DNA from: a virus
Direction: 5' to 3' (one strand)
Virus record (IMG/VR): IMGVR_UViG_2225789004_000001
Span: 1 to 39,414 of that record
DNA: 39,414 nt
Shown here: positions 586 to 25,922 of the stretch, piece after piece
Layout of the letters: every line of letters starts with the position of its first letter
Numbering within the stretch: position 1 is the stretch's first letter
Program-made: the position numbers and the translations under genes
Notes under the pieces: model-generated
What the model was told of the DNA's origin: nothing
Database searches by the model: none
The model's input: only the letters and a program-made list of their open reading frames with translations

Positions 586-586
586 T

Positions 587-1116: not shown

Positions 1117-1121
1117 CGAAA

Positions 1122-1577
1122 TCACCCCACTCTTTCAATGAATTTTTCTAACCATGCGATGATATGTTCCGGAACTTCGATTTTCAACCAAGCCGAACCA
1201 TATTTGTAACCTTCATCGTCATAAATGCCAAACTCTTCTAAAATTTTACAAGTGGTTTCATAATCAAAAGAGCATTTGGATTGGAGTTCAAGATATTTCA
1301 TGAGTTCAGTCTGCTTCACCGTTCCGGCTCTCAAATTGTTGAGATGGTAGTTATCCCAGACATACATCAGAAAAGCGAAATCTCGTTTACTGAATTTTTG
1401 GTAAATTCTCAATTCGCCGGATTCATATTTCTTTTTCAAATAATCTTGAATCTGACCGATATGATTTCCACCGATGTCGCCGCAGATGCTTAACACGCCA
1501 TCTTTGGTGTATTCAATTTCAATTGTTACAAGACCTTCGTCTTTGATTACTCCAAATTTTATTGCTTTTTTAATCAT
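1122..1577 (-). CDS. Hypothetical protein, first gene behind promoter module at 1584..1650
   Basis: ORF track. GGAGTGAT SD 6 nt upstream of the ATG. Confidence 0.75.
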   Translation of the reverse strand: MIKKAIKFGVIKDEGLVTIEIEYTKDGVLSICGDIGGNHIGQIQDYLKKKYESGELRIYQKFSKRDFAFLMYVWDNYHLNNLRAGTVKQTELMKYLELQSKCSFDYETTCKILEEFGIYDDEGYKYGSAWLKIEVPEHIIAWLEKFIERVG

Positions 1578-1583
1578 TTCAAA

Positions 1584-1650
1584 TCACTCCAATTAGGTAA
1601 TTTACCTACAATATAGTAAAGTATCTATAAGTATATATAGGTTTTGGTTA
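1584..1650 (-). promoter_or_regulatory. Conserved promoter module (CCAAAA, TATATATA, N13, TACTATATTGTAG, hairpin, GGAGTGAT)
   Basis: On the minus strand: TATATATA 1632..1639, TACTATATTGTAG 1606..1618, palindrome TAGGTAATTTACCTA 1594..1608, SD 1584..1590. Confidence 0.65.
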
Positions 1651-1654
1651 AACC
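1605..1654. repeat. 50-bp perfect repeat, copy A (identical to 38642..38691)
   Basis: cctacaatatagtaaagtatctataagtatatataggttttggttaaacc read identically at both loci. It spans a promoter module and the stop region of an HNH-like gene. Confidence 0.85.
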
Positions 1655-1655
1655 A

Positions 1656-2093
1656 TCACCGAACCCGATTTTGCATATTTTCGGCATGAGTAATCCAACG
1701 ACAGTTTTCAGGTTCATAATTTCCGTTGTTATTGATTCTGTCTAATTCTAATCCTTCTTGGTATCCGTTTTCCATCGCCCAATCAAAAAAAGATTTAAAA
1801 TCAGATTTCCAGATTTCACATACTGAAATACCTCTGCCGCCGTAATCAGGATACGCATTTCTGTTTGGATTTGAACAGCGGTCTTTCATGTTTCGCCATA
1901 CGTTATGGAGTTTATGATTCGACAATCCGTGTCGAGTCATTTTTGTTGAAACATAACATTTCCGGCACAAATCCGTTTTCCGGCGTTCCCAGTTAATCAA
2001 TTCAACTTCTCTTAATTCGCCGCAATTCGGACATTTCACATTTTCATACATTTTCGTTAATTTATTTCGTTTTCTTTTTCTCACCTCTCGCAT
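1656..2093 (-). CDS. HNH_3-type endonuclease-like protein with N-terminal Zn ribbon
   Basis: ORF track 1656..2132. CPNC...CRKC, then WRNMKDRC..NP..YPDYGGRGISVC..W and LDRINNNGNYEPENCRWITHAENMQN. ATG 2093 follows GGTGATGAAA. The start choice is uncertain. Confidence 0.65.
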   Translation of the reverse strand: MREVRKRKRNKLTKMYENVKCPNCGELREVELINWERRKTDLCRKCYVSTKMTRHGLSNHKLHNVWRNMKDRCSNPNRNAYPDYGGRGISVCEIWKSDFKSFFDWAMENGYQEGLELDRINNNGNYEPENCRWITHAENMQNRVR

Positions 2094-2098
2094 TTTCA

Positions 2099-4144: not shown

Positions 4145-4149
4145 TTTTA

Positions 4150-4407
4150 TCACTCATCTGGTAAACGCTTTGCCAATACTCTTTCTTCGTGTTGTCGTTC
4201 AATGGATTGTAAAAATCTGGAAATCCGATACCGAATTTCTTTAATATCGTTTTGTTCCAATTCTTCGCCAACTTCCTCTATTTTTATGTGAAACAATTTC
4301 GGATTATCTTTCTGAACCGAAACTTTAACCATCATTACGATTTGAGAATCTAAATCTGTTGAAACATTTACCGGCGAACTCTTTTTTTTGAAAATATTAT
4401 TAAACAT
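4150..4407 (-). CDS. Hypothetical protein
   Basis: ORF track 4150..4578. ATG 4407 is preceded by GGAG. The upstream part of the ORF overlaps a hairpin-containing spacer. Confidence 0.5.
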   Translation of the reverse strand: MFNNIFKKKSSPVNVSTDLDSQIVMMVKVSVQKDNPKLFHIKIEEVGEELEQNDIKEIRYRISRFLQSIERQHEERVLAKRLPDE

Positions 4408-4481
4408 GATGAAAACTCCGAATTTTAATCTGGAAAACAACATATACGGATTAAAGTTTATTAAATTTCCGTATAAGAAAC

Positions 4482-4525
4482 ACCGCTTCCGGATTAAAGA
4501 TTTAAACAGCGTTTCCGGAAGCGGT
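4482..4525 (-). terminator. 11-bp perfect-stem hairpin in a 136-nt spacer (attenuator or regulatory hairpin)
   Basis: accgcttccgg (4482..4492) and ccggaagcggt (4515..4525). Confidence 0.4.
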
Positions 4526-4543
4526 TTTGTCGTTTTTAAAAGG

Positions 4544-5011
4544 TTATTTCCAAATACCGAATTTTCGGGTGGGGTCAATGGCTTGCTTTCTGAAATCTTG
4601 GAGTGATTTTAAGTCCGCCATACAGCCAGTGACGTGTTCTTCGATACCGGAAATAACTTCATTCACAAATTCGATATGGTAGTGACGAATGAATTTATTG
4701 AGTGTTTTTAATTCCCATTTGCCAGAAATGGGAGTGTAGCCTTCTTCTTCATTAGAGTGTTTCGCTCTTTCTTGGATAAGGCGTTCAATAAATTCTCGTT
4801 CATCGGAATCCATGAATGTAAGAGCGGATTTCAGAACTAAATCTTCAAATCCGCTCGCATCAATTGCATAGTTGTCGGAATCAAACGAATATCCGTCTCG
4901 TGATTCCAATATTTCTAAAATTGCGTCATAAATAGAATCCAACTCCGACTCAAAATAAGTCGGAGTGTTTTCTACTGATGAACTTTCAATTCGTTCATCC
5001 ATTTCAATCAC
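4544..5011 (-). CDS. Acidic hypothetical protein
   Basis: ORF track. SD ACGGTGATTGAA upstream. Confidence 0.7.
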   Translation of the reverse strand: MIEMDERIESSSVENTPTYFESELDSIYDAILEILESRDGYSFDSDNYAIDASGFEDLVLKSALTFMDSDEREFIERLIQERAKHSNEEEGYTPISGKWELKTLNKFIRHYHIEFVNEVISGIEEHVTGCMADLKSLQDFRKQAIDPTRKFGIWK

Positions 5012-5014
5012 CGT

Positions 5015-5812
5015 TTACTGCGGCATTGTGCATCTTGCAATAATTACATCGGCTTGAATCGGAACTTCGTATTCATAATTGCTTCCGTTTTCAAGAGACC
5101 AGAAATAAAGTTTGCCGAATTTATCGCCGAACTTAAATTCATAATCTTCGCCGAAACTCTTTTCCAGTTTGTTCATTATTGCTAAACATTCCGAATCTGT
5201 GATTGGTTTAATACAATTATCGTTGCCGAAACTTTCAATTTGAGCGAATCCGGCGGCTTGAACTCCACCGCACATGAAATAAATGATTTCGTTGTCTTTC
5301 TTGGAAGCGATTTCATTTACCAAGAAATTAATTGATGTTTCATCATTGACATGATGGTGGATGATGGATGTTACCGGATTGCCGAAAATATTTGTTGTTT
5401 TCAATTTTTCAGAAATCCATTTCTGCCTTTGTTCGCTGATGTCAAACTCATTCCCTTTTTCATCCAAAGAAATTGAAATGGAATGTCCGGCTGTCAGTTG
5501 TGTCGTTTCTGCATCTTCATATAAGACTTCATAAACGATGATTTTGTTTGAGTCCAACATCGCTTCTTTTGCCGCATCCGGAACATCGTCCGTCATAATC
5601 ATATGCATCATAAATTCGACTGATAAATCTTCCAGATTTTTGCTGTCTTTCAAATTGATTGCTTCAACTTTCGTCAATCCATACTTTTCCTTCATCATCG
5701 GATTTAAGAAAAGTGTTCTTTCACCGGAATCAACGATTTCCTTTAACGCAAGAATATCAGATTCGGTTTTAACGAGCAGGTTGTAAGCAATTCCAGATTT
5801 TAAATTTTTCAT
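5015..5812 (-). CDS. Hypothetical protein
   Basis: ORF track. GGAGTGAAAAAAT upstream of the ATG. Confidence 0.75.
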   Translation of the reverse strand: MKNLKSGIAYNLLVKTESDILALKEIVDSGERTLFLNPMMKEKYGLTKVEAINLKDSKNLEDLSVEFMMHMIMTDDVPDAAKEAMLDSNKIIVYEVLYEDAETTQLTAGHSISISLDEKGNEFDISEQRQKWISEKLKTTNIFGNPVTSIIHHHVNDETSINFLVNEIASKKDNEIIYFMCGGVQAAGFAQIESFGNDNCIKPITDSECLAIMNKLEKSFGEDYEFKFGDKFGKLYFWSLENGSNYEYEVPIQADVIIARCTMPQ

Positions 5813-5840
5813 ATTTTTTCACTCCAAGTTGATTTAAGTA

Positions 5841-5877
5841 ATTTATTAAAACCGGAAATTGGATTTCAACTTCCGGT
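5841..5877 (-). terminator. Intrinsic terminator-like hairpin
   Basis: accggaa (5851..5857) and ttccggt (5871..5877), followed on the minus strand by TTTAATAAAT. Confidence 0.5.
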
Positions 5878-5892
5878 CATAACTCTGATTGA

Positions 5893-6906
5893 TTATTTAT
5901 TTCCTAAATATCCGCCTCTCATTGCGGCAGACCCTTCGACTTCACCGGACATATAGACTGCACCAAGATTTGCACCTCTAATTCTTGACTGAACAGTTTT
6001 CATTCCTTTCAACATTTCGTCAAACTCTTCGTTTACTTTCGGGGGGGTAATGAGTTGAAGAGCAACGCAATTTTGATTCAAAACTTTTTCCACTCCGGCA
6101 ACGAATCCCAAAGCGAACGAGTTGTAAACATTTCTTCCATGTCCGTGTTCTTTTTGGTATTTCACTCTTTCTTTTTCCGCCAATTTGTTTCCCAAAGCGA
6201 ACAATTTTGTGAAAACCTTTCTTGCCACCAACGCATCAGTTTCAAATCCAAAAAATGCGATTGAATTTCCGATAGAATATTGTTTACAACGATAATTCTT
6301 CGCCAACACATTCGCCAAAGCAACTTTCCATTCTCTTCCCTCGCCGCAGTCATAGATTGCGGAGTAGCAGGTCTCAACTTCGCCTTCCAGATTCAAATCT
6401 TCTGTTTTCAATCCATGTTTCGCAAGAAGATTCTGTGCCATTTGAGCGGCGAGTTGAGCTTCTTCTTCGAATTTTGTTTTGGCTGATAATTCGAGACATT
6501 TGTTAATCTTTTCAATCAAATTAACTCTTTCTTCATCAACTTCGAGACATTGATTGATATGAAGGTCTTTGACGTAAAACTTAAACATTATTGTTTCAAA
6601 TTTTAATCCTTTAATTGTGACTTTTCTGGTTGAGAACTCCACATTGTCGTATAACTTGTCTTTTTGTTTCATCAACCGTTTAAAATCTTCCGGCACTATA
6701 AATGTTAATGTTGCGATTGCATCGTTCCAGTCATCCGGCTTAAAGAAGTTTAATTTTACTGTTCCATGTTTCAGGATTTCTTCTAAATTCGGACATCCGG
6801 CTGTTACGAACATCTTATTAATTCGGACTTCCATTTCCTTTACTTCTTCCGGCGTAAGTGTCGGTTGGTTAAGGGAATTTTTGATTTCAGTCATATTTTT
6901 AATCAC
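5893..6906 (-). CDS. Hypothetical protein with DUF2786-like helical segment
   Basis: ORF track. INKCLELSAKTKFEEEAQLAAQMAQNLLAKHGL resembles the DUF2786 signature. GGAGTGAT SD upstream. Confidence 0.7.
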   Translation of the reverse strand: MIKNMTEIKNSLNQPTLTPEEVKEMEVRINKMFVTAGCPNLEEILKHGTVKLNFFKPDDWNDAIATLTFIVPEDFKRLMKQKDKLYDNVEFSTRKVTIKGLKFETIMFKFYVKDLHINQCLEVDEERVNLIEKINKCLELSAKTKFEEEAQLAAQMAQNLLAKHGLKTEDLNLEGEVETCYSAIYDCGEGREWKVALANVLAKNYRCKQYSIGNSIAFFGFETDALVARKVFTKLFALGNKLAEKERVKYQKEHGHGRNVYNSFALGFVAGVEKVLNQNCVALQLITPPKVNEEFDEMLKGMKTVQSRIRGANLGAVYMSGEVEGSAAMRGGYLGNK

Positions 6907-6973
6907 TCCAATTATTAGTAGTAATTTTACTACAATTACATAAAGTCACTATAAGTATATATAGGTTTTGGTT
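6903..6973 (-). promoter_or_regulatory. Conserved promoter module, leftward arm
   Basis: TATATATA 6956..6963, hairpin GTAGTAA/TTACTAC 6918..6933, SD rc at 6903..6909. Shares 25 bp (6949..6973) with the 50-bp repeat. Confidence 0.6.
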
Positions 6974-7087
6974 GGATGTTTATGTTGTCTGCTATCGTTA
7001 TATTATATTATGTGTTGATTATGGGTTATTACTTTTTTATGTTTTCTTATTACTTTTTATGATTTTTTTTCAGTATTATATTTTTAA

Positions 7088-7123
7088 TTGTAAATTTACA
7101 ATTTTTTACAATATTTTTACAAT
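7088..7123. repeat. Iteron cluster 1: 14-bp palindrome TTGTAAATTTACAA plus three direct TTTACAAT
   Basis: TTTACAAT at 7095, 7105 and 7116, spaced 10 to 11 bp. Inverted ATTGTAAA at 7088. Confidence 0.8.
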
Positions 7124-7217
7124 AATCACCCCTTTTTTCGCCGATTTTTTCCAGTCGGAATAGAGGTGTGAGATTTATAATAATTGCTCAATATAAGTTT
7201 ATATAGGAAAATAAAAT

Positions 7218-7235
7218 TTTACAATTTTTTACAAT
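7218..7235. repeat. Iteron cluster 2: two direct TTTACAAT
   Basis: Copies at 7218..7225 and 7228..7235. Confidence 0.8.
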
Positions 7236-7367
7236 AAAGAAAATCGTTATCTATATACTATATTATTGTATTATTTTATTATTTTATAAGATATTAATTA
7301 AATATAGAAAAGTCCCCCCTAAATGATATTATAGATTTTTCTCATATTCAGACGCTGTTTCAAAAAT

Positions 7368-7383
7368 TTTACAATTTTACAAT
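7368..7383. repeat. Iteron cluster 3: two direct TTTACAAT
   Basis: Copies at 7368..7375 and 7376..7383. Confidence 0.8.
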
Positions 7384-7486
7384 ACAGTATCCTGCTATCG
7401 AATCAACCACCTACCTATTTTATTTTGCTATATAAACCCTCAAAAAACCTTCAACCGACCTCGATTGCCAGTGGAACTTTTTTCGG

Positions 7487-7673
7487 TATCAGGAGAACCG
7501 AAGTTGAAACCGTATGACCCCGACCCCGTAAAAAATTTCTTCATTTCCGGCAACTGCTGTCGAATCCGAAAAAACGGCATTTTTCGTCAAAAATCCACCG
7601 GTAATAAGAGACGGTGTAAAAATAAATCAACTTTACTTGATTTACAGATTTCGCCTTTCTGGTTCTCCTGATA
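7487..7673 (+). other. GC-rich structured element closed by a perfect 13-bp inverted repeat (candidate ncRNA or MITE-like insert)
   Basis: tatcaggagaacc (7487..7499) pairs with ggttctcctgata (7661..7673). Internal hairpins: cgaaaaa/tttttcg 7567..7586, caccg/cggtg 7596..7616, aaatcaa/ttgattt about 7623..7643. Strand is not established. Confidence 0.35.
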
Positions 7674-7717
7674 GTGATTCTTTTCTTGGATGTGAGAGTA
7701 AAAAGAAGAATTTTCAA

Positions 7718-7782
7718 CCAATAAGTATATATAGGAATAAAGACTATACTATATTGTAGGTAAATTACCTAATTGGAGTGAT
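7718..7782 (+). promoter_or_regulatory. Conserved promoter module, rightward arm
   Basis: CCAATA, TATATATA 7726..7733, 13 nt, TACTATATTGTAG 7747..7759, palindrome TAGGTAAATTACCTA 7757..7771, GGAGTGAT 7775..7782. Confidence 0.65.
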
Positions 7783-7787
7783 TAAAA

Positions 7788-8000
7788 ATGAAAATTATTG
7801 AAATGAGAATGAAATCAAAACAAATCATCGCAGAATACCAAACAAAAAATATTTTTGTTGTTGTGGATGAAGAAGTTGGACATCATCAAGTTACAAATGT
7901 GATTTCTGTTGATTCAAAAGTTGCAAAAGTTCAAGCCGGAGAATTTATCAGAGAGTTGAGAATTGATTCTTCATCAGTTGTGTTGATTTTGACGGAGTGA
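7788..8000 (+). CDS. Hypothetical early protein
   Basis: ORF track. Strong SD. Confidence 0.7.
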   Translation: MKIIEMRMKSKQIIAEYQTKNIFVVVDEEVGHHQVTNVISVDSKVAKVQAGEFIRELRIDSSSVVLILTE

Positions 8001-8233
8001 GTGAAGTGTCCGGCAGTATCATTTACAAACACATTAATAATTTAGAATCCGGCGATGTTTTGGAAGATTTATATGAAAATCATTTTATCTTCCTTCAACG
8101 AGCCGAAGAAGAATTAGAAGTCGTCAAAGTTGGCGGCGTTGGAAGTTTTTCAAAAATCTTAACCATTCCGGTTAAGAATGTTATGCAAGAAATTGGAACA
8201 GAACGATATATCAGAATTTATAAATGGAAGTGA
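7997..8233 (+). CDS. Hypothetical protein
   Basis: ORF track. GTG start overlapping the upstream TGA. Confidence 0.55.
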   Translation: MSEVSGSIIYKHINNLESGDVLEDLYENHFIFLQRAEEELEVVKVGGVGSFSKILTIPVKNVMQEIGTERYIRIYKWK

Positions 8234-8472
8234 AGCAAATGCCAGAAGAAATTATTATCACAACGGAAGAAATGGAAAATTCGGCGAGGGTTCTTCGCCT
8301 GCTCGGAACGAATGAAGGACTTGCCGAGTTGAAAGAACGAAAAGACATCAAACCGGAAGATGTTTCAAATGGATTGCGAACCGCATGGGTGATTGTTACA
8401 TCTCTAATTGAAGCAAAGACGGAATTAATCCTGACAAACGACCCGGCGGCAGAGAAGGTGGAATTGAAATGA
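8224..8472 (+). CDS. Hypothetical protein
   Basis: ORF track. Overlapping starts and stops suggest translational coupling. Confidence 0.6.
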   Translation: MEVKQMPEEIIITTEEMENSARVLRLLGTNEGLAELKERKDIKPEDVSNGLRTAWVIVTSLIEAKTELILTNDPAAEKVELK

Positions 8473-8777
8473 AATTCACGCCGGAACAAGAGAAAGTTAT
8501 GCAATCCGCAATCGCAACTTTCGGAATTGATGACCAAACCATCAAAGCGATTGAAGAGTTTTCGGAACTTAATGTTGAGTTGGCGAAAATGGTAAATGCA
8601 CCGGACTTCTTCGACCAAGAAAGATACGATGCTATGGTTGAGGAAATGGCGGATTCGCATATCATGCTTTATCAACTCAAAACGATGTATAAGGTTTCAG
8701 ATGAGGAATTGAATCTGAAAATTTTTGAAAAATTGAAACGTCTCGAAGAATTAATTGATTTTGTGAGAAGTGATTAA
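8469..8777 (+). CDS. MazG-like nucleotide pyrophosphohydrolase (small, all-helical)
   Basis: EEFSELNVELAK and MVEEMADSHIMLYQL resemble the paired EExxE/D metal-binding helices of MazG-type NTP-PPases. ATGA overlap with the upstream gene. Confidence 0.5.
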   Translation: MKFTPEQEKVMQSAIATFGIDDQTIKAIEEFSELNVELAKMVNAPDFFDQERYDAMVEEMADSHIMLYQLKTMYKVSDEELNLKIFEKLKRLEELIDFVRSD

Positions 8778-8778
8778 G

Positions 8779-8871
8779 ATGATTTTTCTCTTTCTCGCAC
8801 TCTGTTGTCTTTCTTTTGGAGTCGGAATGTATCTGGGTGCGAATATATGGCGGTTGAAACATGAGTTTTAA
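8779..8871 (+). CDS. 30-aa hydrophobic peptide
   Basis: Hand translation: MIFLFLALCCLSFGVGMYLGANIWRLKHEF. Confidence 0.4.
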   Translation: MIFLFLALCCLSFGVGMYLGANIWRLKHEF

Positions 8872-9025
8872 AGATTTCTTTGAATTATTTGGTGCGATTT
8901 CCCTTTTCATCATTCTCATGATAATCAGAGTCCTGATTGATTGGAAATTCTGGTTGATGTTTTTGATAATTTTGATTATCTCAATTCTTCTTGGAATTGT
9001 TAATATTTCAATTAATTTTAATTGA
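8861..9025 (+). CDS. 54-aa membrane protein
   Basis: Hand translation: MSFKDFFELFGAISLFIILMIIRVLIDWKFWLMFLIILIISILLGIVNISINFN. Confidence 0.45.
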   Translation: MSFKDFFELFGAISLFIILMIIRVLIDWKFWLMFLIILIISILLGIVNISINFN

Positions 9026-9026
9026 G

Positions 9027-9064
9027 ATATAGGCGAAATGCCTATATTTCTAACCCTATTTTTT
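9027..9064 (+). terminator. Intrinsic terminator-like hairpin
   Basis: atataggc (9027..9034) and gcctatat (9040..9047), then a T-rich tail. Confidence 0.5.
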
Positions 9065-9097
9065 ACAGTAAAAGGATAGACTATTTGGACTAAAAAT

Positions 9098-9514
9098 ATG
9101 TGGCAAATTGCTGACATGATTCTGGCACGGAAGATAAGCGAATCTTTGCGGATGAAATCCGATTTCCGGATAAACGGAGTTTCGGTTATTTTCATTTCCG
9201 CAGATAAAATTTTTCCATATCATCTTGATTTTTTCTTGGAAGATGGCGACACTATCAATCTTGATTTCTTGGTTAATCGCACTGTCGATATAGATTTCGA
9301 TTATGAATACTATGATGAGAGAGAAGAATTTATTTTCGAGATTATTGAAATGAGTTCCGGCTTGAATCAGTTCGATAAAGAGAAAAGGAATAGGATGTTA
9401 TTGAAAGAAGAATATTTATCGCCGCCGGAACTAAAAAGATTGCTCGCAATAGAAGGATTTTATGAATATCAAAAATTCAGAGTAAAAAACGGACAAAGAG
9501 TATATATAGGATGA
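9098..9514 (+). CDS. Hypothetical protein
   Basis: ORF track. Its 3-prime end overlaps the next promoter module. Confidence 0.65.
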   Translation: MWQIADMILARKISESLRMKSDFRINGVSVIFISADKIFPYHLDFFLEDGDTINLDFLVNRTVDIDFDYEYYDEREEFIFEIIEMSSGLNQFDKEKRNRMLLKEEYLSPPELKRLLAIEGFYEYQKFRVKNGQRVYIG

Positions 9515-9557
9515 AATACTATACTATATTGTAGGTAAATTACCTAATTGGAGTGAT
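9494..9557 (+). promoter_or_regulatory. Conserved promoter module
   Basis: TATATATA 9501..9508, 13 nt, TACTATATTGTAG 9522..9534, TAGGTAAATTACCTA hairpin, GGAGTGAT 9550..9557. Confidence 0.65.
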
Positions 9558-9562
9558 AAGAA

Positions 9563-9751
9563 ATGATTTATAGAGTTTGTTATAGCAGTATTCATTATGA
9601 TGCCGAAGAAGATGATGAATTTTCCGCATTTGATTCGGATTATTTCTCAACCAGAGAAAAAGCAGAAGAGTTTGCCAAGAAGGTCAGCGGCGATGTCGAT
9701 GAAATCACCGAAGAACATTTTGAAAGATTGAGAGTTCCGTTGAGAGGTTAA
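9563..9751 (+). CDS. Acidic hypothetical protein
   Basis: ORF track. Confidence 0.7.
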   Translation: MIYRVCYSSIHYDAEEDDEFSAFDSDYFSTREKAEEFAKKVSGDVDEITEEHFERLRVPLRG

Positions 9752-9754
9752 AAA

Positions 9755-10144
9755 ATGTCAAAATTTATAAACCTCAACACAAATCCGCACAATCGTCAAG
9801 TCGGCGATTGTGTTGTTCGTGCAATCGGGATGGCAACGAACCAAACGTGGGATGAAACCTTCGATGAGTTGTGCCAGATTGCCAGAGAAACAAAATCCAT
9901 GCCTGATGGAGATGATGTTTACGGACTTCTCTTGGCAAGACATGGGTTTCAGAGGATTCCGATTATTGTCAAGAAAAATTCAAAACGACCGACCGTCAGT
10001 CAGATGTGCGAACTTTGTCCAAAACAAGAATTTATCGTTTGCAAAGTGGCACATCATCTTGTCGCCGTGTCAAGAGATGGATATTATGATACATGGGATT
10101 CCGGCGATAAACCGCTTTATGCGTATTTCAAGAAGGTGGATTGA
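9755..10144 (+). CDS. Putative papain-like Cys/His peptidase
   Basis: VGDCVVRAIGMA (candidate nucleophile Cys) and AHHLVAVSRDGYYDTWDSG (candidate His/Asp). The fold assignment rests on motif resemblance only. Confidence 0.4.
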   Translation: MSKFINLNTNPHNRQVGDCVVRAIGMATNQTWDETFDELCQIARETKSMPDGDDVYGLLLARHGFQRIPIIVKKNSKRPTVSQMCELCPKQEFIVCKVAHHLVAVSRDGYYDTWDSGDKPLYAYFKKVD

Positions 10145-10446
10145 TGCCAGTTAATCTTCCATCCAATTCTCACGCATGGGGCGTTGTCAAAGGTTTCTCT
10201 ATCGGCGGCTGTTGGGTAAGTCCAAGTGGTGAAGTTGTCTGGACGGCATTTTCAAAACATGAAGATGTCGCACAATGTATCGTCCAGAAGAACTGGGTGC
10301 AGATAAGCGGACAGGATTTAACTCAATCAATCAGAGTTTATTCCAAAACCTCTGAAAGATTGACATCGCAACAACGCAGAGTTCTTGTGGAATTTGCGAT
10401 TGATGCAAAAGTTAAGACAGAAAATATTTCATTTGAATCATCTTAA
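10144..10446 (+). CDS. Hypothetical protein
   Basis: ORF track 10141..10446. ATG at 10144. Confidence 0.6.
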   Translation: MPVNLPSNSHAWGVVKGFSIGGCWVSPSGEVVWTAFSKHEDVAQCIVQKNWVQISGQDLTQSIRVYSKTSERLTSQQRRVLVEFAIDAKVKTENISFESS

Positions 10447-10515
10447 CCAATAGTTATTTATAGGAACGGATACTTTACTATATTGTAGTTTCAAAATACT
10501 ACAATTTGGAGTGAT
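10446..10515 (+). promoter_or_regulatory. Conserved promoter module (TATTTATA variant)
   Basis: AACCAATA, TATTTATA 10455..10462, 13 nt, TACTATATTGTAG 10476..10488, hairpin GTAGT/ACTAC, GGAGTGAT 10508..10515. Confidence 0.6.
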
Positions 10516-10519
10516 AAAT

Positions 10520-10645
10520 ATGCAGTATAATAAAAACATGACAGCTTGCGAAATCGAAAGTCAGTTGGAAAGAATCCAGAAGGAATATTTTGTTTCAGAA
10601 TCCGAAGCACGAGATATGTTCATTAATATGCGAATGGATGTGTAA
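10520..10645 (+). CDS. 41-aa protein
   Basis: Hand translation: MQYNKNMTACEIESQLERIQKEYFVSESEARDMFINMRMDV. Sits behind the promoter module and SD. Confidence 0.5.
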   Translation: MQYNKNMTACEIESQLERIQKEYFVSESEARDMFINMRMDV

Positions 10646-10647
10646 TC

Positions 10648-10740
10648 ATGTGCGAAGAATATGAATATGACCAATGCGAATGTCAAGATGAATACATGGA
10701 TGATTACGACCGGATTCCAAATTATGATGATTGGGAGTGA
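10648..10740 (+). CDS. 30-aa acidic Cys-containing peptide
   Basis: Hand translation: MCEEYEYDQCECQDEYMDDYDRIPNYDDWE. Confidence 0.4.
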   Translation: MCEEYEYDQCECQDEYMDDYDRIPNYDDWE

Positions 10741-10746
10741 TTTCTT

Positions 10747-10893
10747 ATGAAACAAGAAACCGTAACTGATTGTAAAACGAGGAAAGAAGTTTTTGAAAAA
10801 CTTCCATGGGCGAACAGAGTCGCCAAAGTTGAAGGCGGTTTTATCGCTTTTGAATCCATAGATGCTTATGAAAGATGGAATGAGCAGATTTAA
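10747..10893 (+). CDS. 48-aa protein
   Basis: Hand translation: MKQETVTDCKTRKEVFEKLPWANRVAKVEGGFIAFESIDAYERWNEQI. SD GGGAGTGAT upstream. Confidence 0.5.
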   Translation: MKQETVTDCKTRKEVFEKLPWANRVAKVEGGFIAFESIDAYERWNEQI

Positions 10894-10907
10894 TTCCATC
10901 TTTTTTC
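10874..10907 (+). terminator. Intrinsic terminator
   Basis: gatggaat (10874..10881) and attccatc (10893..10900), followed by TTTTTT. Confidence 0.65.
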
Positions 10908-11003
10908 ATTCTGCCGGAGTGAAAATCGGAAACACTTGCGAAGTCCGTTCAAATCGGAACTCTGGCAACTTAAATTATGTATCTTAAAAAGGAGTGATAT
11001 ATC

Positions 11004-11252
11004 ATGGTAAAAATTGAAAATAAAATCGAAATTACAGAAATCAAAACAGTCGATGACTTCATGTCTGCGTTCCGCACCGTCAAAGCCAAAAAACTTACCA
11101 ACTTTGAAGTTCAGTGCAATGAAGTCGGCGAATACTCCGTCCTTGCGTGGGCTGATGATGTTCCGGCAACCCCCAAACCCAAAGTCGAAGCAGAAACAGA
11201 AGGTGAGACCGTCTATTCTGACGAACCGCCATCCGGCACGGAGTTTGAGTAA
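11004..11252 (+). CDS. Hypothetical protein
   Basis: ORF track. AAAGGAGTGAT SD upstream. Confidence 0.65.
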   Translation: MVKIENKIEITEIKTVDDFMSAFRTVKAKKLTNFEVQCNEVGEYSVLAWADDVPATPKPKVEAETEGETVYSDEPPSGTEFE

Positions 11253-11261
11253 TCACGCTTT

Positions 11262-11298
11262 CCGGCGACCCCATATCGCCGGATTCATCTTTCTTTTT
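11262..11298 (+). terminator. Hairpin with T-rich tail
   Basis: ccggcga (11262..11268) and tcgccgg (11276..11282). Confidence 0.45.
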
Positions 11299-11310
11299 GG
11301 AGTGAGAAAA

Positions 11311-11523
11311 ATGTCTGAAATCAGAGTCGAACTTTTCATTGTGAAAAAGAACAATGATGGTTCGTTCACCAAAGATGGCGAAATTGATTACAATATTCCG
11401 GCTCGTGAGCAGTATGACTGTTTGACATGGCAAGAAGCGATGGCAAGAGTTCAGAAGATTTACGAAGTTGAAGATATGTCAAAACAAGTTATCACCATCA
11501 GAGAAATCGGAAATGCCTACTAA
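11311..11523 (+). CDS. Hypothetical protein
   Basis: ATG 11311 follows TGGAGTGAGAAAA. It is the C-terminal part of track ORF 11014..11523. Confidence 0.65.
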   Translation: MSEIRVELFIVKKNNDGSFTKDGEIDYNIPAREQYDCLTWQEAMARVQKIYEVEDMSKQVITIREIGNAY

Positions 11524-11869
11524 TGTTAGATGTCCGCAGTCTTGCCTTCATCGAATGAGTTCCGGTCTTTGCGGTAAGGAATCCATTGAATTAGGCGTGG
11601 ATGAGACGATTTGTAAAAGTTTCCAACCTGATGTCAATATCAGAGATTTCGAAAGCGTTCAAACCGATTCACGACTTCAAATTCATGCCAAGAGCAAGAG
11701 AAGACCGGAATATACCGTTTGTGGAATAAAATTGTATCCGGTGACATCATTGCGGAAGCAACGAACCGAAACTGAAAGTTTTCAGAAATATCAAAATTCC
11801 GGCAAGGCGTGTAAAACCTGCCAGATTCGAATTAGACAAATGAGTAGTGAGAAAAAGAAATGGAGTTGA
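11513..11869 (+). CDS. Cys-rich basic protein
   Basis: Track ORF 11468..11869. ATG 11513 overlaps the end of the upstream gene. CPQSC...C...C and CKTC motifs. Confidence 0.5.
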   Translation: MPTNVRCPQSCLHRMSSGLCGKESIELGVDETICKSFQPDVNIRDFESVQTDSRLQIHAKSKRRPEYTVCGIKLYPVTSLRKQRTETESFQKYQNSGKACKTCQIRIRQMSSEKKKWS

Positions 11870-11874
11870 AATAA

Positions 11875-12114
11875 ATGAGAATGGAAAAAGTTGAAAATAA
11901 ACAAGAAATGGAAGATTCAATGTTGAGTTACATGAGACAAGGATACTCCATCAAAATGAGAGATGAGAAATCGGTGACGATGGTTAAGAGAAGTTACGGC
12001 AATATTGGAATCCATATTGTCCTCGCATTATTCACATTTTTAATCGGCAATGCGTTATACGCCGCCTTCTGTTATGCCGCAAAAAGCGATGAAGTTTTTA
12101 TCCAAATCGTTTAA
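11875..12114 (+). CDS. Membrane-anchored small protein
   Basis: ORF track. Hydrophobic IHIVLALFTFLIGNALYAAFCYAA segment. Confidence 0.6.
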   Translation: MRMEKVENKQEMEDSMLSYMRQGYSIKMRDEKSVTMVKRSYGNIGIHIVLALFTFLIGNALYAAFCYAAKSDEVFIQIV

Positions 12115-13295: not shown

Positions 13296-13805
13296 ATGGC
13301 ATCTTCTCAATTACCAAAAACTCTGGAATTTTGGCTCTCGGATAAAGGGCTTCTCATTTTGAATAGTTTCGGTAGAGCCGGAATGACTGTTAAAGAAGTG
13401 TGTGAAAAAATCTCTATTTCTCAAAAAATATTTAAAGCATGGATGGAAACACACCATTCGATTCGAAATGCGTTTAATCTGGAAGAACGGAATTATATTG
13501 ATATTGTTGAAGGCAAACTTTTAAAAGCCGTAACCAATGAAATTGAAACCTACAACGAAAAAAGCGTTGTTGAAAGAATTGTTTATGATTCCGAAGGTAA
13601 ACAAGTTGGTAAGGTTGTCACAAAAAAGACAGTTGAAAAGCCGATTAAAATCGAATCTGAATTAATGAAATTTTATCTCACCAATCGTGCGGCAGATAAA
13701 TGGGCGTATTCACCTGAACCAATTAAGAAACGAAATGTTTCAAAATTAGAGGAAATTATGCAAGAATGGGTATCGGAAAGCAATAAAGAGAGTGATGAAG
13801 AATGA
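13296..13805 (+). CDS. terS: Terminase small subunit-like HTH protein
   Basis: N-terminal HTH (GMTVKEVCEKISISQKIFKAWM), then ...IVEGKLLKAV... and ...FYLTNRAADKW... typical of TerS proteins. Positioned upstream of terL. Confidence 0.5.
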   Translation: MASSQLPKTLEFWLSDKGLLILNSFGRAGMTVKEVCEKISISQKIFKAWMETHHSIRNAFNLEERNYIDIVEGKLLKAVTNEIETYNEKSVVERIVYDSEGKQVGKVVTKKTVEKPIKIESELMKFYLTNRAADKWAYSPEPIKKRNVSKLEEIMQEWVSESNKESDEE

Positions 13806-14521
13806 AAGTTTTAGTTACCGGAACAACACACGGAATTGGACATTCAATTGCAAGGTTATTCTTGGAAGAAGGACATTTGGTTGTCGGGTTGGATATTGAA
13901 CCTGAAATCGACCCTTTAAGTGCCGAGTTTGCCGATTGGAAATTTTATCAATGTGATGTCGGAAAGCCGGAAGAATTGCCGGACGAATCTGATTTTGAAA
14001 TCATCGTAAATAACGCCGCAACTACGGATGAAAAATCCGCAATTCAGACCAATCTTCTTGGTTATGTGAATGTTGGTGAAAAATACGCTTTCCAAGAAAG
14101 AATTAAATCAGTTGTAAACATTTGTTCAATATCATCAGTTAGTGGAATTGAATTGCCGAATTATTGCATTTCAAAAGGCGGTAATTTAGCATATTCACAA
14201 AACTTATCTCTTCGATTAGCACCAAGAGCAACAGTAAATGCGATTATCTGCGGCGGTGTGATTACTAAAATAAATCAAGAGATTTTAGATGACGAGAAAC
14301 TTTACCAAATGTGTAAAGACGAAACCCTTCTTGGAAAATGGTGTCAGCCAAGAGAAGTGGCAGATTTAGTTTATTATTTGACAGTTGGAAATAAATCTAT
14401 CACTGGACAAACTATAACTATTGATAACGGTGAATGTGCCAAATTCAATTTTATTGGAACTTCCGAAGTTAAAAATGAATTTTATAAATCACAGTTTAAA
14501 AGGAGTGAATTATATGAGTAA
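13802..14521 (+). CDS. Classical short-chain dehydrogenase/reductase (SDR)
   Basis: TGTTHGIGHSIA (TGxxxGxG), NNAA, catalytic Ser region CSISSVSG, YCISK (YxxxK). Confidence 0.85.
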   Translation: MKVLVTGTTHGIGHSIARLFLEEGHLVVGLDIEPEIDPLSAEFADWKFYQCDVGKPEELPDESDFEIIVNNAATTDEKSAIQTNLLGYVNVGEKYAFQERIKSVVNICSISSVSGIELPNYCISKGGNLAYSQNLSLRLAPRATVNAIICGGVITKINQEILDDEKLYQMCKDETLLGKWCQPREVADLVYYLTVGNKSITGQTITIDNGECAKFNFIGTSEVKNEFYKSQFKRSELYE

Positions 14522-15080
14522 AACAAACGAAATTTCTGTTCTCGATATTGATATTGAACAAATTAAAAAATATGAAAACAACCCAAGAGAAAATGCGGAA
14601 TCAATTCCTTATGTTGTAAACTCAATTAAGGAATATGGGTTTAAAAATCCAATTGTTTTGGATTCCAACATGGTTATTATCGCCGGACATACAAGATTTG
14701 AAGCCGCAAAGATTCTTGAAATGAAAACAGTTCCGTGTATAATTGCGGAAGATTTGACGGAAGAGCAGGCACGAGAGTTCCGATTAATTGACAATAAAAC
14801 TGCGGAATTGTCTTATTGGAATTTTGATAAACTTTTAGAAGAGATTTCGCATTTGGAGTGCGATTTAACGCAATATGGATTCAATGACATTCAAGATAGT
14901 ATTCGAGATTTAGATGATGTTGATGAAATTACAGAAGATAATTATAAGAATCCGGAACAAGCGAAAAAGAAATGTCCGGCTTGCGGTCATGTTGATTTCG
15001 TTGTAAATTTCAGAATTGTTAAAAATGAAGCAGTATCATCAACACCAACTTTCGAAGAACCTGACGAGGAATTTGAGTGA
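14514..15080 (+). CDS. ParB N-terminal (ParB/Srx) domain protein with C-terminal Zn ribbon, DpdB-like
   Basis: YENNPRENAESIPYVVNSIKEYGFKNPIVL..IIAGHTRFEAAKILEMKTVPCII. CPACGH near the C-terminus. ATG 14514 follows AAAGGAGTGAAT. Confidence 0.75.
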   Translation: MSKTNEISVLDIDIEQIKKYENNPRENAESIPYVVNSIKEYGFKNPIVLDSNMVIIAGHTRFEAAKILEMKTVPCIIAEDLTEEQAREFRLIDNKTAELSYWNFDKLLEEISHLECDLTQYGFNDIQDSIRDLDDVDEITEDNYKNPEQAKKKCPACGHVDFVVNFRIVKNEAVSSTPTFEEPDEEFE

Positions 15081-15838
15081 AGATTTTCTTATCAGCAGTC
15101 GAAGGGTCTGAAAAACATATTATCGACAGATGTATTAGAGAAGGAATTAATCTCAAATACATTTTAATTTCTTATTTTCACCTTCGCAAAAACGAAAAAA
15201 TATTCAACAAATTAAGATTAATTTGCGATGAAATGCTCATCGACAGCGGGGCACACTCTTTTCAAAAAGGTTTTAAAGTTGATTTTTATGAGTTTACCAA
15301 AGAATATGCTCAATGGATTATCGAAAATGATTGCGACCAAATGACTGGTTATTTTGAGATGGATATTGACAATTTAATCGGTTATGATGAGGTTAAAAAA
15401 CTTCGTGCAATTCTCGAAGCCGCACACCCGACAAAAATAATTCCGGTATGGCACGCAACGAGAGGTGTGGAAGAGTTCGAAAAAATGTGTGAAGAATACG
15501 CAGGTCGAATCGTTGCCATTTCCGCAATTAGAAATAAAGACATTTCAGACGACCAGTATATGATGTTTTTGAAAACAGCAAAAAAATATGGATGTAAAGT
15601 TCATGCTCTTGGAATGACACGAACAAATTTATTAAATAAAGTTCCTTTTGATTATACAGATTCATCAACATGGAAACAAACTGGTAATTATGGCGGTTTC
15701 GCCAAATTTACAGGATGTAAAATGAAAGTCGTTAGTGCGGCAGGTGGTCTGAAAACTTATTATTTAGATTTTCATAATTTAAAAGAATTTATGAAAATGC
15801 AACAGTATTTCGAAGCAAAATATAAACATTTAGAATAA
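15077..15838 (+). CDS. dpdA: DpdA-like DNA transglycosylase (TGT superfamily)
   Basis: LIDSGAHSFQKG resembles the TGT DSGGFQ catalytic strand. FDYTDSSTW resembles the second conserved Asp strand. ILISYFHL is a TIM-barrel strand. Neighbours are ParB-like and YhhQ genes. Confidence 0.6.
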   Translation: MKIFLSAVEGSEKHIIDRCIREGINLKYILISYFHLRKNEKIFNKLRLICDEMLIDSGAHSFQKGFKVDFYEFTKEYAQWIIENDCDQMTGYFEMDIDNLIGYDEVKKLRAILEAAHPTKIIPVWHATRGVEEFEKMCEEYAGRIVAISAIRNKDISDDQYMMFLKTAKKYGCKVHALGMTRTNLLNKVPFDYTDSSTWKQTGNYGGFAKFTGCKMKVVSAAGGLKTYYLDFHNLKEFMKMQQYFEAKYKHLE

Positions 15839-15844
15839 AAGGAT

Positions 15845-16540
15845 ATGATTGAAATGATACAGAATGAATTGCTGTTTTTTGTCACCATGTTGGTGAACTT
15901 CTCCGGCATCTTGATTGCTTATAAATTGTTTGGTAAACAAGGTCTTTTCGTATGGATGGGGCTTGCGATTGTTATAACTAACATCGAAGTCCTCAAATGC
16001 GTGGATATGTTCGGATGGGCTGTCACGTTAGGAAATGTGATATACGGCACAACTTTCTTGGTTACGGACATCCTTAACGAGAAATATGGTGTAAAAAAAG
16101 CACGGATGGCGGTTATGGTCGGATTCTTTGCGATGATTGTTTTCACGGTTATCATGCAGGTAAATCTTCTCTTCGAAGTGAATGCCGCCGACTTTTCCAA
16201 AGATGCTTTTGAAACAATCTTCGCCGTTCTGCCAAGAATTGCAATCGCTTCTATTATTGCTTATCTTGTCGCAAATCTTATTGATGTTCAAGTTTATCAT
16301 TTCATCAAAAAGGCATTGCCGGACGATAAGTGGTTATGGGTGCGAAACAACGGCTCATCCCTCTGCGGACAAGCAATCGACACTGTTATTTTTGGAATTA
16401 TCGCATTTATTGGACTTTACGAATTTCCGATAATTTTCCAACTCACAATAACAAGTTATATCTTAAAATTTGTGATTACTCTTTGCGAAACACCGTTTTT
16501 ATACATTGCGAAACGAATAAAGCCGATTTACGATGAGTGA
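15845..16540 (+). CDS. yhhQ: YhhQ/DUF165 (VUT) family queuosine-precursor transporter
   Basis: Polytopic membrane protein. GNVIYGTTFLVTDILNEKYGVKKAR and SSLCGQAIDTVIF match YhhQ signatures. Confidence 0.7.
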   Translation: MIEMIQNELLFFVTMLVNFSGILIAYKLFGKQGLFVWMGLAIVITNIEVLKCVDMFGWAVTLGNVIYGTTFLVTDILNEKYGVKKARMAVMVGFFAMIVFTVIMQVNLLFEVNAADFSKDAFETIFAVLPRIAIASIIAYLVANLIDVQVYHFIKKALPDDKWLWVRNNGSSLCGQAIDTVIFGIIAFIGLYEFPIIFQLTITSYILKFVITLCETPFLYIAKRIKPIYDE

Positions 16541-17867
16541 AATATTTAATCCAAAGCAAAAGCGTTCTTTTAGACGTTTTATTCAAAAAGCGTTTAAAAG
16601 AATTAACTTTTTTGAAGGGTCGGTATCATCTGGAAAGACCTACATCACATTGATTCTTTGGTCTCTCTGGGTGATGTCACGACCGCCGCAATCAGTCCAT
16701 CTTATGTTCGGAAGAACTATCACTTCTTTGGAACGTAATTGTCTGCTTCTTTTGACGGAACTGTTCGGCGAAGAAAATGTTCAATACTCTGTTTCTTCGA
16801 AAAGGATGCGACTATTTGGCAGGCTTGTCTGGTTAGAAGGTGCGGATAACGAAAGAGCCAGAGCGAAAATTCAAGGTTTAACGATTGATTCAGTGTATGG
16901 TGATGAACTCCCACTCGTTCCGGAAACCTTTTTTAACATGGTTCTTTCTCGTATGAGGATTCTCGGCTCGAAAGGATTTTTTACCGGAAACCCCGATGAC
17001 CCGACAAATTACGTTAAGAAGAATTGGATTGACCGCATTGAAGAGGACGATTTAGATATGATGGTTGAACATTATCATATCTGCGATAATTCGATGTTTC
17101 TTCCGGAAGGTTATATTGAAAATTTATAGAAAGAATACACTGGCGTGTTCTTCAAACGTTACATAGAAGGTCTTTGGGTTGTTGCCGAAGGTGCAGTTTA
17201 TCAATTGTTTGGCGATAATTCAGACGATTATATTATTGATTTGAAAGATTACAATTTTGATAATTTAATGTATATCAACATTGGCATAGATGTTGGTGAA
17301 ACAGAATCCGGAACTGCGTTCACAGCAACCGGCTTTGAGAAAAATTATGCCGGCATTGTTGCTCTGGATGCCGACTGGATTAAAGGAAATGCCTTAACCG
17401 ACCCCACCGCACTTTACGAAGCGTTTCATGCTTTCTTGGCACGGCAACAATATGACGGTGTGAAGGTAAAAGCGATTTATTTCGATAAGGCTCAACAATT
17501 TTTAAAACGTGGTTTAGTAACTTATCTTTCTTCCAAAGGAATCAACATCCAAGTTTACGATAGTTTAAAATATCCTATCAACGATAGAATTATGGTTACA
17601 AACGCATTATTTTCAACATATAAATTAAAAATAAGCACACGATGTCCGCATTTGATAAAAGCGTTTAAAGAAGCAGTTTGGAAAGCGAATACAACGCCGA
17701 TGGAACGACTTGATGACTTCACTTCTGACATTGATAGTTTAGATTCGTTTGAGTATTCAATCGAAGATGGAATGTATAACATCGTCACCTTTTTACAGAA
17801 ACCAAAAATCAGATTTCCAAAAGAAAATTTAATGATAAAGTTACAAACGCAGAGGTTATATGAATGA
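16533..17867 (+). CDS. terL: Terminase large subunit, with one in-frame TAG at 17127..17129
   Basis: ORFs 16533..17129 (Walker A GSVSSGKT, Walker B VYGDE) and 17145..17867 (nuclease half, IGIDVGETESG) are in the same frame (612 nt apart). Codons 17130..17144 (KEYTG) are open. Confidence 0.85.
17127..17129 (+). other. In-frame TAG inside terL
   Basis: ...PEGYIENL-TAG-KEYTGVFFKRYIEGLWVVAEGAVY... Confidence 0.8.
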
Positions 17868-25280: not shown

Positions 25281-25922
25281 ATGGATTTATTAAAATCGGA
25301 TTTACATCCGATTTTTACTTATAAGAAATGGGATTTCACATTAAATCTTTCTTTGGAACGTGTTCTTAATGCCATTTCTGCACTTGATGAAGAAGCGGAC
25401 ATAAAACAACTCGACCGCTTCTATCTCGTTTTGGATAATTTACTTGATGTCAATTCTAATGATTTTGATACTTTTGAGTATCTTGAAGAAATGACTTGTT
25501 TTGAACAATAGGAAGTTTTCACCATATTGCTGAAAACCTTCGTATTTCCGCCGGAATCTGCGATAAAACGCTCAACTCCATCTTTCGATATTAACTATGA
25601 TTTTGAACTCGTTTATACAGCGATTTTGAAGGCTTTTAATATTGACATTATCGACCAAAAAGAAGTGCTTTCTTGGAACAAATTCAGAGCCTTATTAAAA
25701 GATGTGAATGAAGATTCGATGTTAAATCGTGTTATTGAAATTCGAGAAATGCCTTTACCGCCTGCTACCAAGAAAAATATGGAACGGCGTGCTGAAATCA
25801 GGCGTGCGAAAAAGAAATATGACCTTCCGCACCTGAAAAAAGCAAGAAAGGAAAAAGAACGAGAGACATTGAGAAAGATGGCGGAAATGCAAAAGAAGGC
25901 GGAAGAAAATGGCAACACCTGA
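25281..25922 (+). CDS. Tail assembly chaperone-like protein, with one in-frame TAG at 25509..25511
   Basis: ORFs 25281..25511 and 25527..25922 are in the same frame (246 nt apart). Codons 25512..25526 are open. The basic C-terminal tail overlaps the tape measure start. Confidence 0.5.
25509..25511 (+). other. In-frame TAG in the chaperone gene
   Basis: ...EEMTCFEQ-TAG-EVFTILLKTFVFPPES... Confidence 0.65.

Follow-up and report, generated by a model that had tools for sequence, protein, structure and literature searches.

What do four genes do that stand between the small and the large terminase gene of a phage, and that resemble a base-exchanging enzyme, a ParB-like protein, a transporter and a redox enzyme? 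The question is posed by positions 13802-16540 of the virus record IMGVR_UViG_2225789004_000001 (IMG/VR), whose complete stretch of 39,414 nucleotides was analysed and is called the window below. The genes encode a classical short-chain dehydrogenase/reductase (SDR), a ParB-like protein, a DpdA-like transglycosylase and a YhhQ/COG1738-type (Vut_1) transporter. We consider it likely that this island serves as a cassette of the late operon, transcribed together with the terminase genes, for the post-replicative modification of phage DNA with a 7-deazaguanine base that is not made by the phage. The new part of the arrangement is the SDR, which is the dedicated partner of Vut_1 transporters in a two-gene operon of gut bacteria, and not primarily a partner of DpdA.

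Organization of the island

A sequence-only reading that preceded this work described four co-oriented, overlapping genes between terS and terL. We found them as described, on the plus strand:

13296-13805, plus strand: terS (small terminase), 5′ flank; phrog_309, 2.7e-11; homologue in the same position in locus L006
13802-14521, plus strand: SDR; adh_short_C2, 8.7e-23, with adh_short also matched
14514-15080, plus strand: ParB-like protein; ParB_N (PF02195), 1.9e-10; phrog_620, 2.8e-49
15077-15838, plus strand: DpdA-like protein, 253 aa; phrog_887 'queuine tRNA-ribosyltransferase', 9.6e-35
15845-16540, plus strand: YhhQ/COG1738 (Vut_1) transporter; Vut_1, 1.1e-47, 162.6 bits; TIGR00697, 5.6e-60
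16533-17867, plus strand: terL (large terminase), 3′ flank; Terminase_6N/3, phrog_2; in-frame TAG at 17127-17129

The four open reading frames (ORFs) are translationally coupled, with stop/start overlaps at 13802-13805 (ATGA, terS/SDR), 14514-14521, 15077-15080 and 16533-16540; the single exception is a gap of 6 nt. As the island hardly differs in GC content (0.336) from the remainder of the genome and shows no enrichment of promoter-like or terminator-like sites, the stretch from terS to terL reads as one operon. In related loci the cassette is mostly located just 5′ of terS and terL, and terS stands ahead of it only in the window and in its closest relative, L006. A DNA search for relatives of the island among deposited phages found essentially none, the single match covering 207 nt at 67%.

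The DpdA-like transglycosylase

The 253-aa protein had been assigned to the tRNA-guanine transglycosylase (TGT) superfamily, as DpdA-like, on the strength of two motifs, DSGAHSFQ and FDYTDSSTW. Both are present, and residues D56, S57, G58, D195, S196, S197 and W199 within them are invariant in 42 homologues, as are D96/D98 and H126; H176-x-L-G-x-T-R is a further invariant motif. At the profile level, the similarity to DpdA is seen not only in the phrog_887 match, but also in tblastn searches, which reach the annotated DpdA proteins of phages BCD7, BRock, VpKK5 and phiFN37, and in an hhalign comparison of the family with the DpdA of phage Dp-1 (95.6%, E 1e-8). The latter pairs DSGAHS with DSSAYS, PVWH with PIFH, HCLGMT with HAFGMT and DSSSW with DSTS; D56-S-G, D96/D98, H126 and D195-S-S-x-W fall on the VDSSAYS, PIFH, HAFGMT and ADSTS motifs of Dp-1 DpdA.

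An AlphaFold2 model built from the alignment (pLDDT, i.e. predicted local distance difference test, 91.7) is a TIM barrel, (β/α)8, of minimal form, devoid of the Zn subdomain and of any large insertion. When it was compared by Foldseek with the predicted viral structures of BFVD, 37 matches were obtained at E<=1e-3, with template-modelling (TM) scores up to 0.92. Almost all of these are phage proteins annotated as 'queuine tRNA-ribosyltransferase' or DpdA, including those of Vibrio phage nt-1 and of actinophages and mycobacteriophages. By modelled fold and by profile, the protein thus belongs to the phage DpdA family. Membership of the bacterial DpdA family of the Dpd islands was rejected, as the protein matches no bacterial DpdA model in NCBIfam or PADLOC, has no large Ins8 insertion and is only 253 aa long.

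The search for relatives yielded 1439 proteins at E<=1e-5, and their loci were gathered from GTDB genomes (25), IMG/VR (80) and, in several cases, contig look-ups. They were annotated with locally built hidden Markov models. Of 103 distinct loci, 97 entered the ParB count and 100 the count of supply genes presented below. The clade is mainly derived from gut and rumen metagenomes and from (pro)phages of Firmicutes; the hosts named on genome contigs are, among others, Listeria monocytogenes, Lentilactobacillus, Clostridia, Lachnospiraceae, Bacteroidales/Alistipes/Prevotella, Megasphaera and metagenome-assembled genomes (MAGs) of Methanobrevibacter. Its DpdA proteins are only about 25-30% identical to those of isolated phages, the best match among the latter being BCD7 (30% identity), whose gene adjoins FolE, QueC, QueE and QueD.

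Some members of the set differ in length or setting. Protein gp021 of Bacillus phage BCD7 (L205, 5950-8223) is 757 aa long, and its DpdA domain forms the N-terminal third. In L178-L180, L182, L187 and L188, where no transporter was detected, the DpdA ORF is about 413 aa long (10001-11239), with terS directly after it, and may be a fusion with an extra C-terminal domain. Three loci (L018, L020 and L021; DpdA identity 37-48%) carry a ParB-DpdA-Vut_1 cassette on contigs binned to Methanomicrobiales/Methanobrevibacter MAGs; archaeal proviruses or errors of binning may account for them.

The ParB-fold partner

Directly 5′ of the DpdA gene, a ParB-fold gene was found in 95 of the 97 distinct loci, its stop codon in most cases overlapping the start codon of DpdA. 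The pair is kept across contigs of Firmicutes, Bacteroidales and Methanobrevibacter, its gene order is flipped in L018, and it is also present in Bacteroidales full-pathway clusters located away from the terminase genes. This conservation suggests that the two proteins are functional partners. The window protein (188 aa), whose N-terminal domain is of the ParB fold, shares with its relatives the motifs PYxxNPR, SIxxxGFxxPI, GHTRxxA (in the window GHTRFEAA, GxxRxxA), DNK and a C-terminal CPxCG. It resembles the ParB domain that DNA methyltransferases of phages carry as a fusion (PADLOC MTase_II N-terminus, 3.6e-19; phrog_498) and also gives ParB/Noc-type matches.

The sequence-only reading equated this pair with the DpdA/DpdB pair of bacterial dpd clusters, and this can be maintained only as far as the presence of a ParB-fold partner is concerned. 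Orthology with DpdB was rejected: the protein has GHTRFEAA in place of DGQ(H/Q)R, is 188 aa long, matches none of the DGQHR/DndB-type families and lacks the SspE-like helical C-terminal domain. Its likeness to DpdB is a functional analogy. Since bacterial DpdA requires the ParB-fold ATPase DpdB (PMC10164549), the best inference by analogy is that the phage protein would be a DNA-loading or DNA-opening accessory of DpdA.

It might be argued that the ParB-like gene is just a common phage nuclease or partition gene, placed close to the terminase genes by synteny and functionally unconnected with DpdA. ParB-like proteins of the phrog_620 type are indeed widespread in phages, and the similarity to the N-terminal domain of methyltransferase fusions fits such an origin. 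We nevertheless regard this explanation as improbable, given the translationally coupled co-occurrence described above, its persistence away from the terminase genes and in inverted order, and the bacterial DpdA/DpdB precedent (PMC10164549).

The constant ParB-fold, i.e. DNA-binding, partner also bears on the target of the enzyme. TGT-superfamily proteins are ancestrally tRNA enzymes, some phages may boost the production of queuosine precursors (Hutinet 2019, PMC6884629), and DNA is here proposed as the target from the genes alone; the DpdA-like enzyme could accordingly act on host tRNA and boost or alter a queuosine-type modification, with the transporter feeding that pathway. Besides the partner, however, the window contains no tRNA genes, the protein has neither the Zn subdomain nor a PF01702 match, both structure and profile group it with phage DpdA, and the cassette is located in a packaging operon. 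Action on tRNA therefore seems very improbable to us, and exchange in DNA is the reading that we follow below.

The transporter and the supply of the precursor

The transporter scores 202.6 bits with the TIGR00697 'queuosine precursor transporter' model (cutoff 50.95) and only 57, versus 252, with the E. coli-type model NF008406. It is a transporter of the YhhQ/COG1738 (Vut_1) type, as had been proposed, and its predicted cargo is a queuosine precursor.

The earlier report that the genome contains no FolE, QueD, QueE or QueC gene was also borne out. Using Dp-1 reference proteins as phmmer queries, we found no FolE, QueC, QueD, QueE, QueF-L or QueT among the six-frame ORFs of the window, while the same queries recover FolE/Que genes in related loci, which served as a positive control. 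Pfam and PHROG scans of the remaining window ORFs revealed none of these genes. As the phage has no such genes, the base must be imported or derived from the host.

This situation is typical of the clade. Among 100 loci, 56 contain only Vut_1 and 22 only QueT as the supply module, so 78 adjoin one of these transporters; 14 carry the full preQ0 pathway next to the cassette, and in 8 no supply gene was detected. Five of the full-pathway loci have QueF-L, as in Dp-1, and six also have Vut_1; distant members of the clade exhibit ParB-DpdA-(QueF-L)-QueC-QueD-QueE-FolE clusters. Salvage without biosynthesis is the commonest state of this DpdA clade. The non-orthologous displacement between Vut_1 and QueT indicates queuosine precursors as the cargo, and this interchange, together with the full pathways found in the same clade and a preQ1-I riboswitch in locus L126 (see below), strongly supports a role in 7-deazaguanine metabolism.

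The SDR and the Vut_1-SDR operon of gut bacteria

That the first gene of the island encodes a classical SDR is confirmed by the adh_short and adh_short_C2 matches and by its conserved cofactor and catalytic motifs: the N-S-Y-K tetrad, TGxxxGIG and NNAG, with G7/G11/G13, N84, S109, Y121 and K125 conserved. An aspartate, Asp31, follows β2 and may be read as the signature of an NAD-type cofactor. Together with its homologues the protein forms a compact clade of SDRs of ~212 aa, with 45-68% identity and the C-terminus DNGE..NFIW, and the phage member retains every residue that is invariant in the clade.

The sequence-only reading regarded the SDR as an extra redox enzyme of the modification system. 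It is indeed part of the cassette, but its primary association is a different one. Contig look-ups placed SDRs of this clade beside Vut_1 in ordinary chromosomal neighbourhoods that lack DpdA. In 69 of 80 SDR-centred metagenome loci, Vut_1 is encoded on the same strand within 300 nt (<=300 nt) of the SDR gene, 5′ of it in 64 cases and 3′ in 5. Several of the remaining 11 loci end at contig edges, and no recurrent neighbour other than Vut_1 was found in the 80 loci. The SDR is thus the dedicated partner of Vut_1 transporters, in a two-gene operon of gut bacteria.

From this source it was recruited to the cassettes of two DpdA lineages, in no fewer than three arrangements. The order SDR-ParB-DpdA-Vut_1 occurs in the window and in L006/L007, ParB-DpdA-SDR-X-Vut_1 in L163 and L164 (L079 is apparently the same locus as L164), and ParB-DpdA-SDR in L019. 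In L069 (2975-3982) and L070 (2873-3949), a DpdA of the other lineage, the Dp-1 type, is encoded ~1-1.3 kb from a Vut_1-SDR operon, and in L109 (1-978) a Dp-1-type DpdA lies beside the SDR on a short contig on which Vut_1 was not detected. None of these three Dp-1-type proteins has a Pfam TGT match.

Protein X, of ~277 aa and without a Pfam match, is encoded between the SDR and Vut_1 in L164 (5256-6086), L163 (4060-4899) and L079 (5253-6083); it may be a further component of a salvage or modification pathway. An SDR in L011, a Lentilactobacillus senioris prophage, was rejected as a further case of recruitment: it is a generic SDR of another kind and scores 103 bits with the clade model. Between the cassette QueT and this gene, just 5′ of terS, lies a Tad2-like (anti-Thoeris) gene (11314-11571), which suggests that the site is an anti-defence or accessory hotspot.

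preQ1-I-like elements upstream of the operon

No riboswitch reached the Rfam gathering threshold in any of 20 bacterial SDR loci, in the window or in 6 related loci. A permissive Rfam scan revealed two sub-threshold PreQ1 matches exactly 5′ of the Vut_1-SDR operon, and a custom covariance model was built from three preQ1-I-like elements. This model found nine elements on the coding strand, eight of them directly 5′ of the operon (L045, L055, L056, L061, L062, L092, L098 and L112) and one about 300 nt 5′ of it (L078). With the element of L077, also immediately 5′ on the coding strand and found by Rfam only, at least 10 Vut_1-SDR loci carry a preQ1-I-like element. An extra match in L108 lies on the strand of a neighbouring gene for an energy-coupling factor (ECF) S-component, about 1 kb away.

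In 10 loci, the element comprises a 5-bp P1 stem, a loop that starts with UUC and ends in C, and an A-rich tail (AAACAAAAC.AGG), with the sequence pattern GACAGUUCG...ACCAUCCUGUC...AAACAAAACUAGG. P1 is 100% paired and highly conserved, with a single compensatory change, and a terminator-like hairpin then follows most of the inspected elements. As a control of specificity, the custom model was run on 1.55 Mb of phage loci and matched once, 5′ of Vut_1. In some loci, therefore, the Vut_1-SDR operon stands behind a predicted preQ1-I-like riboswitch.

A canonical preQ1-I riboswitch was found in one phage cassette. In L126 (IMG/VR UViG_3300045988_159653) it occupies positions 10750-10786, between DpdA and Vut_1 and directly 5′ of the transporter gene; it reads AGCAGUUCGCAAUAAUCCUGCUAAAAACUAAGGAG, with the Shine-Dalgarno sequence sequestered. 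That a phage should carry a preQ1 riboswitch that would control the import of a precursor is of interest in its own right.

Based on these observations we tentatively suggest, while putting the chances of this proposal somewhat below even, that the SDR clade is an unrecognised enzyme of 7-deazaguanine salvage. The operon of gut Firmicutes would import a precursor that cannot be used as such and convert it by NAD(P)-dependent redox chemistry for TGT, and phages of at least two DpdA lineages would have captured this module. Candidate substrates are queuine or a related queuosine-derived compound, oxidised preQ1, or preQ0. In a bolder variant, the SDR would produce a novel derivative of 7-deazaguanine, which would finally be incorporated into phage DNA.

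Proposed mechanism

We propose that the operon is expressed late in infection along with the terminase genes. The YhhQ/Vut_1 permease would bring preQ1 or preQ0 into the infected cell, to which host pools might add; the L126 riboswitch and the relatives that contain QueF-L tip the balance slightly towards preQ1. Where present, the SDR would act as an accessory of the transporter and bring the imported 7-deazaguanine-type compound, by NAD(P)-dependent redox, into the form used as a substrate by DpdA (in bacteria, by TGT). By analogy with TGT and bacterial DpdA, the phage DpdA would then swap guanine in double-stranded DNA through a double-displacement reaction involving conserved aspartates. 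In this step the ParB-fold protein would be an obligatory DNA-handling partner, with a role like that of the DpdB ATPase and a descent from a different ParB lineage. The exchange would take place on concatemeric DNA, before or during packaging, and the modified DNA would resist host restriction. 7-deazaguanine modifications of DNA are known to shield phages from restriction enzymes, and in one study they reportedly gave protection from Cas9 in vitro.

Several results weigh against the proposed function of the cassette. On the side of the transglycosylase, the best Foldseek match in the PDB, TGT 5utj, is weak (E 2.8e-4, TM 0.58) and barely exceeds generic TIM barrels, and PDB sequence searches with the protein or its profile gave nothing significant. 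There is no Pfam TGT (PF01702) match, no match to the bacterial DpdA models mentioned above, and no relationship between the DpdA profile and E. coli Tgt in hhalign (probability 0.3%). The catalytic residues, which in bacterial DpdA are D95/D130/D256, are putative here, being placed by motif alignment. Moreover, of the phages whose only such gene is DpdA, Orion is unmodified and 7-11 is barely modified (PMC6884629), so carriage of DpdA is no guarantee of modification.

As for the SDR, no more than 4 of 100 cassettes of the clade (about 4%) contain it, which makes it dispensable, its nearest solved structures in a PDB profile search are generic FabG-like enzymes, and the clade has no invariant cysteine, which makes a nitrile reduction of the QueF kind unlikely. 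The preQ1-I-like elements occur in only about 10 of the ~64 loci with sufficient upstream sequence, and RF00522 scores them low, at 26.9 bits in L077 and 24.6 bits in L062 as against a gathering score of 39.

The rarity of the SDR, its generic structural relatives and the lack of a riboswitch match at most Vut_1-SDR loci would also suit a simpler explanation, to which the generic SDR beside the Tad2-like gene of L011, in what looks like an accessory-gene hotspot, can be added. The SDR could be an unrelated moron or auxiliary metabolic gene that travels with a Vut_1 protein moving another vitamin-like compound, such as a pterin, and that does not contribute to the modification of DNA. Among the SDRs are the pteridine, sepiapterin and dihydropteridine reductases. 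What speaks against this explanation is that in 10 loci or more preQ1-I-like aptamers and terminator-like hairpins stand directly 5′ of the operon, that the SDR was recruited, in three or more gene orders, beside DpdA genes of two lineages, and that the phage protein retains all clade-invariant residues. We consider an unrelated SDR rather unlikely and keep to a transporter accessory that would act in 7-deazaguanine salvage.

Comparison with known systems

Many elements of the cassette have precedents. The literature already describes phage homologues of YhhQ and DpdA-only phages for which host preQ0 or uptake could be the source (Hutinet 2019, PMC6884629); the DNA of Dp-1 contains dPreQ1 and that of Rosebush dPreQ0 (PMC6884629). 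YhhQ is present in about 9% of dpd islands (PMC11888242), and the pairing of ParB with DpdA has been pointed out in mycobacteriophage CRB2 (PMC6392294). The claim that the combination is an uncharacterised version of the system was therefore overstated, all the more so as 78 of the 100 loci of the clade share its reliance on a transporter. DpdA-only phages, phage YhhQ/QueT genes and the ParB-DpdA pairing are already published; what is new is the SDR module. As far as could be determined, neither the Vut_1-SDR module nor its capture by phages has been described.

The window system shares with the known phage DpdA systems (Hutinet 2019, 2023), i.e. that of Dp-1 (QueF-L, QueC/D/E, FolE, QueT and DpdA, with QueT adjoining DpdA) and the DpdA-only phages of 'group 3', a DpdA-family transglycosylase, a phage-encoded transporter and, as proposed here, a post-replicative exchange. 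It differs from them in the minimal 253-aa barrel, the ParB partner, the site at the head of the terminase operon and the SDR. Cluster B mycobacteriophages such as CRB2 and Rosebush have a ParB-superfamily ORF1 and a DpdA ORF2 beside the packaging module (PMC6392294). In contrast to the window, they encode the preQ0 genes queC/D/E (Orion, which is unmodified, has no supply) and have neither the transporter nor the SDR.

The bacterial Dpd system likewise consists of a transglycosylase and a ParB-fold partner needed for incorporating preQ0 into DNA (Gedara et al. 2023, PMC10164549). Unlike it, the window has a ParB-like protein of 188 aa with GHTRxxA instead of DGQQR and without the SspE-like C-terminus, and neither protein matches a bacterial DpdA/DpdB model. 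dpdC was not detected in the window, which shows no sign of a dpdD-K restriction module either, although no search was aimed at these genes. The bacterial system serves host defence, whereas that of the phage would serve self-modification. Finally, bacterial systems for the salvage of queuosine precursors (YhhQ/QPTR, QueT/QrtT) share the Vut_1 family and the control of transporter genes by preQ1-I riboswitches. The Vut_1-SDR operon differs from them by its second gene, as the queuosine-salvage literature searched makes no mention of an SDR partner of such transporters.

Other features of the genome

The first and last 33 nt of the window (1-33 and 39382-39414) are a direct overlap, which probably implies a circular or complete assembly of ~39.38 kb. 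Given this overlap and an ENA contig of 39,486 bp that is identical over the 8.7 kb compared, the genome is probably complete.

Initially, terL might be taken for two genes; this was rejected, as it is a single frame, 16533-17867, with an in-frame TAG at 17127-17129. The TAG context, IENL*KEYTGVF (the asterisk being the TAG), is the same in L006 (TAG at 5920-5922) despite synonymous divergence, and 30 TerL homologues align across the codon in one high-scoring segment pair, with lysine as the commonest residue at that position. Three further genes are interrupted by TAG: the primase-helicase gene (3371-3373, minus strand, in 4153->2099), a tail-chaperone-like gene (25509-25511, in 25281-25922) and a tail gene (31408-31410, in 30445-31875). 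Of the 56 called genes, five end in TAG, and four of these five run on into long in-frame ORFs. Since the in-frame TAGs are conserved and the window has no tRNA genes of its own, suppression, readthrough or recoding of TAG dependent on the host is suggested.

Outside the island, a D5_N/DUF5906 primase-helicase is encoded at 2099-3229 (minus strand) and an ERF recombinase at 37648-38343 (minus strand). In a PHROG scan of the small ORFs among 289-12114 and 36532-39074, matches to HNH or restriction-endonuclease families were obtained for two (down to 1e-43), and for one a match to an NTP pyrophosphohydrolase family (3e-18).

Implications

Most phages of this clade do not make the base and would import it by means of YhhQ or QueT, and their anti-restriction would thereby be tied to the queuosine-precursor pool of the microbial community. 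The constant ParB partner suggests that a DNA-handling accessory is generally required by this DpdA lineage, which parallels the bacterial DpdA/DpdB pair. For the queuosine field, the Vut_1-SDR operon provides a concrete candidate for a missing salvage enzyme.

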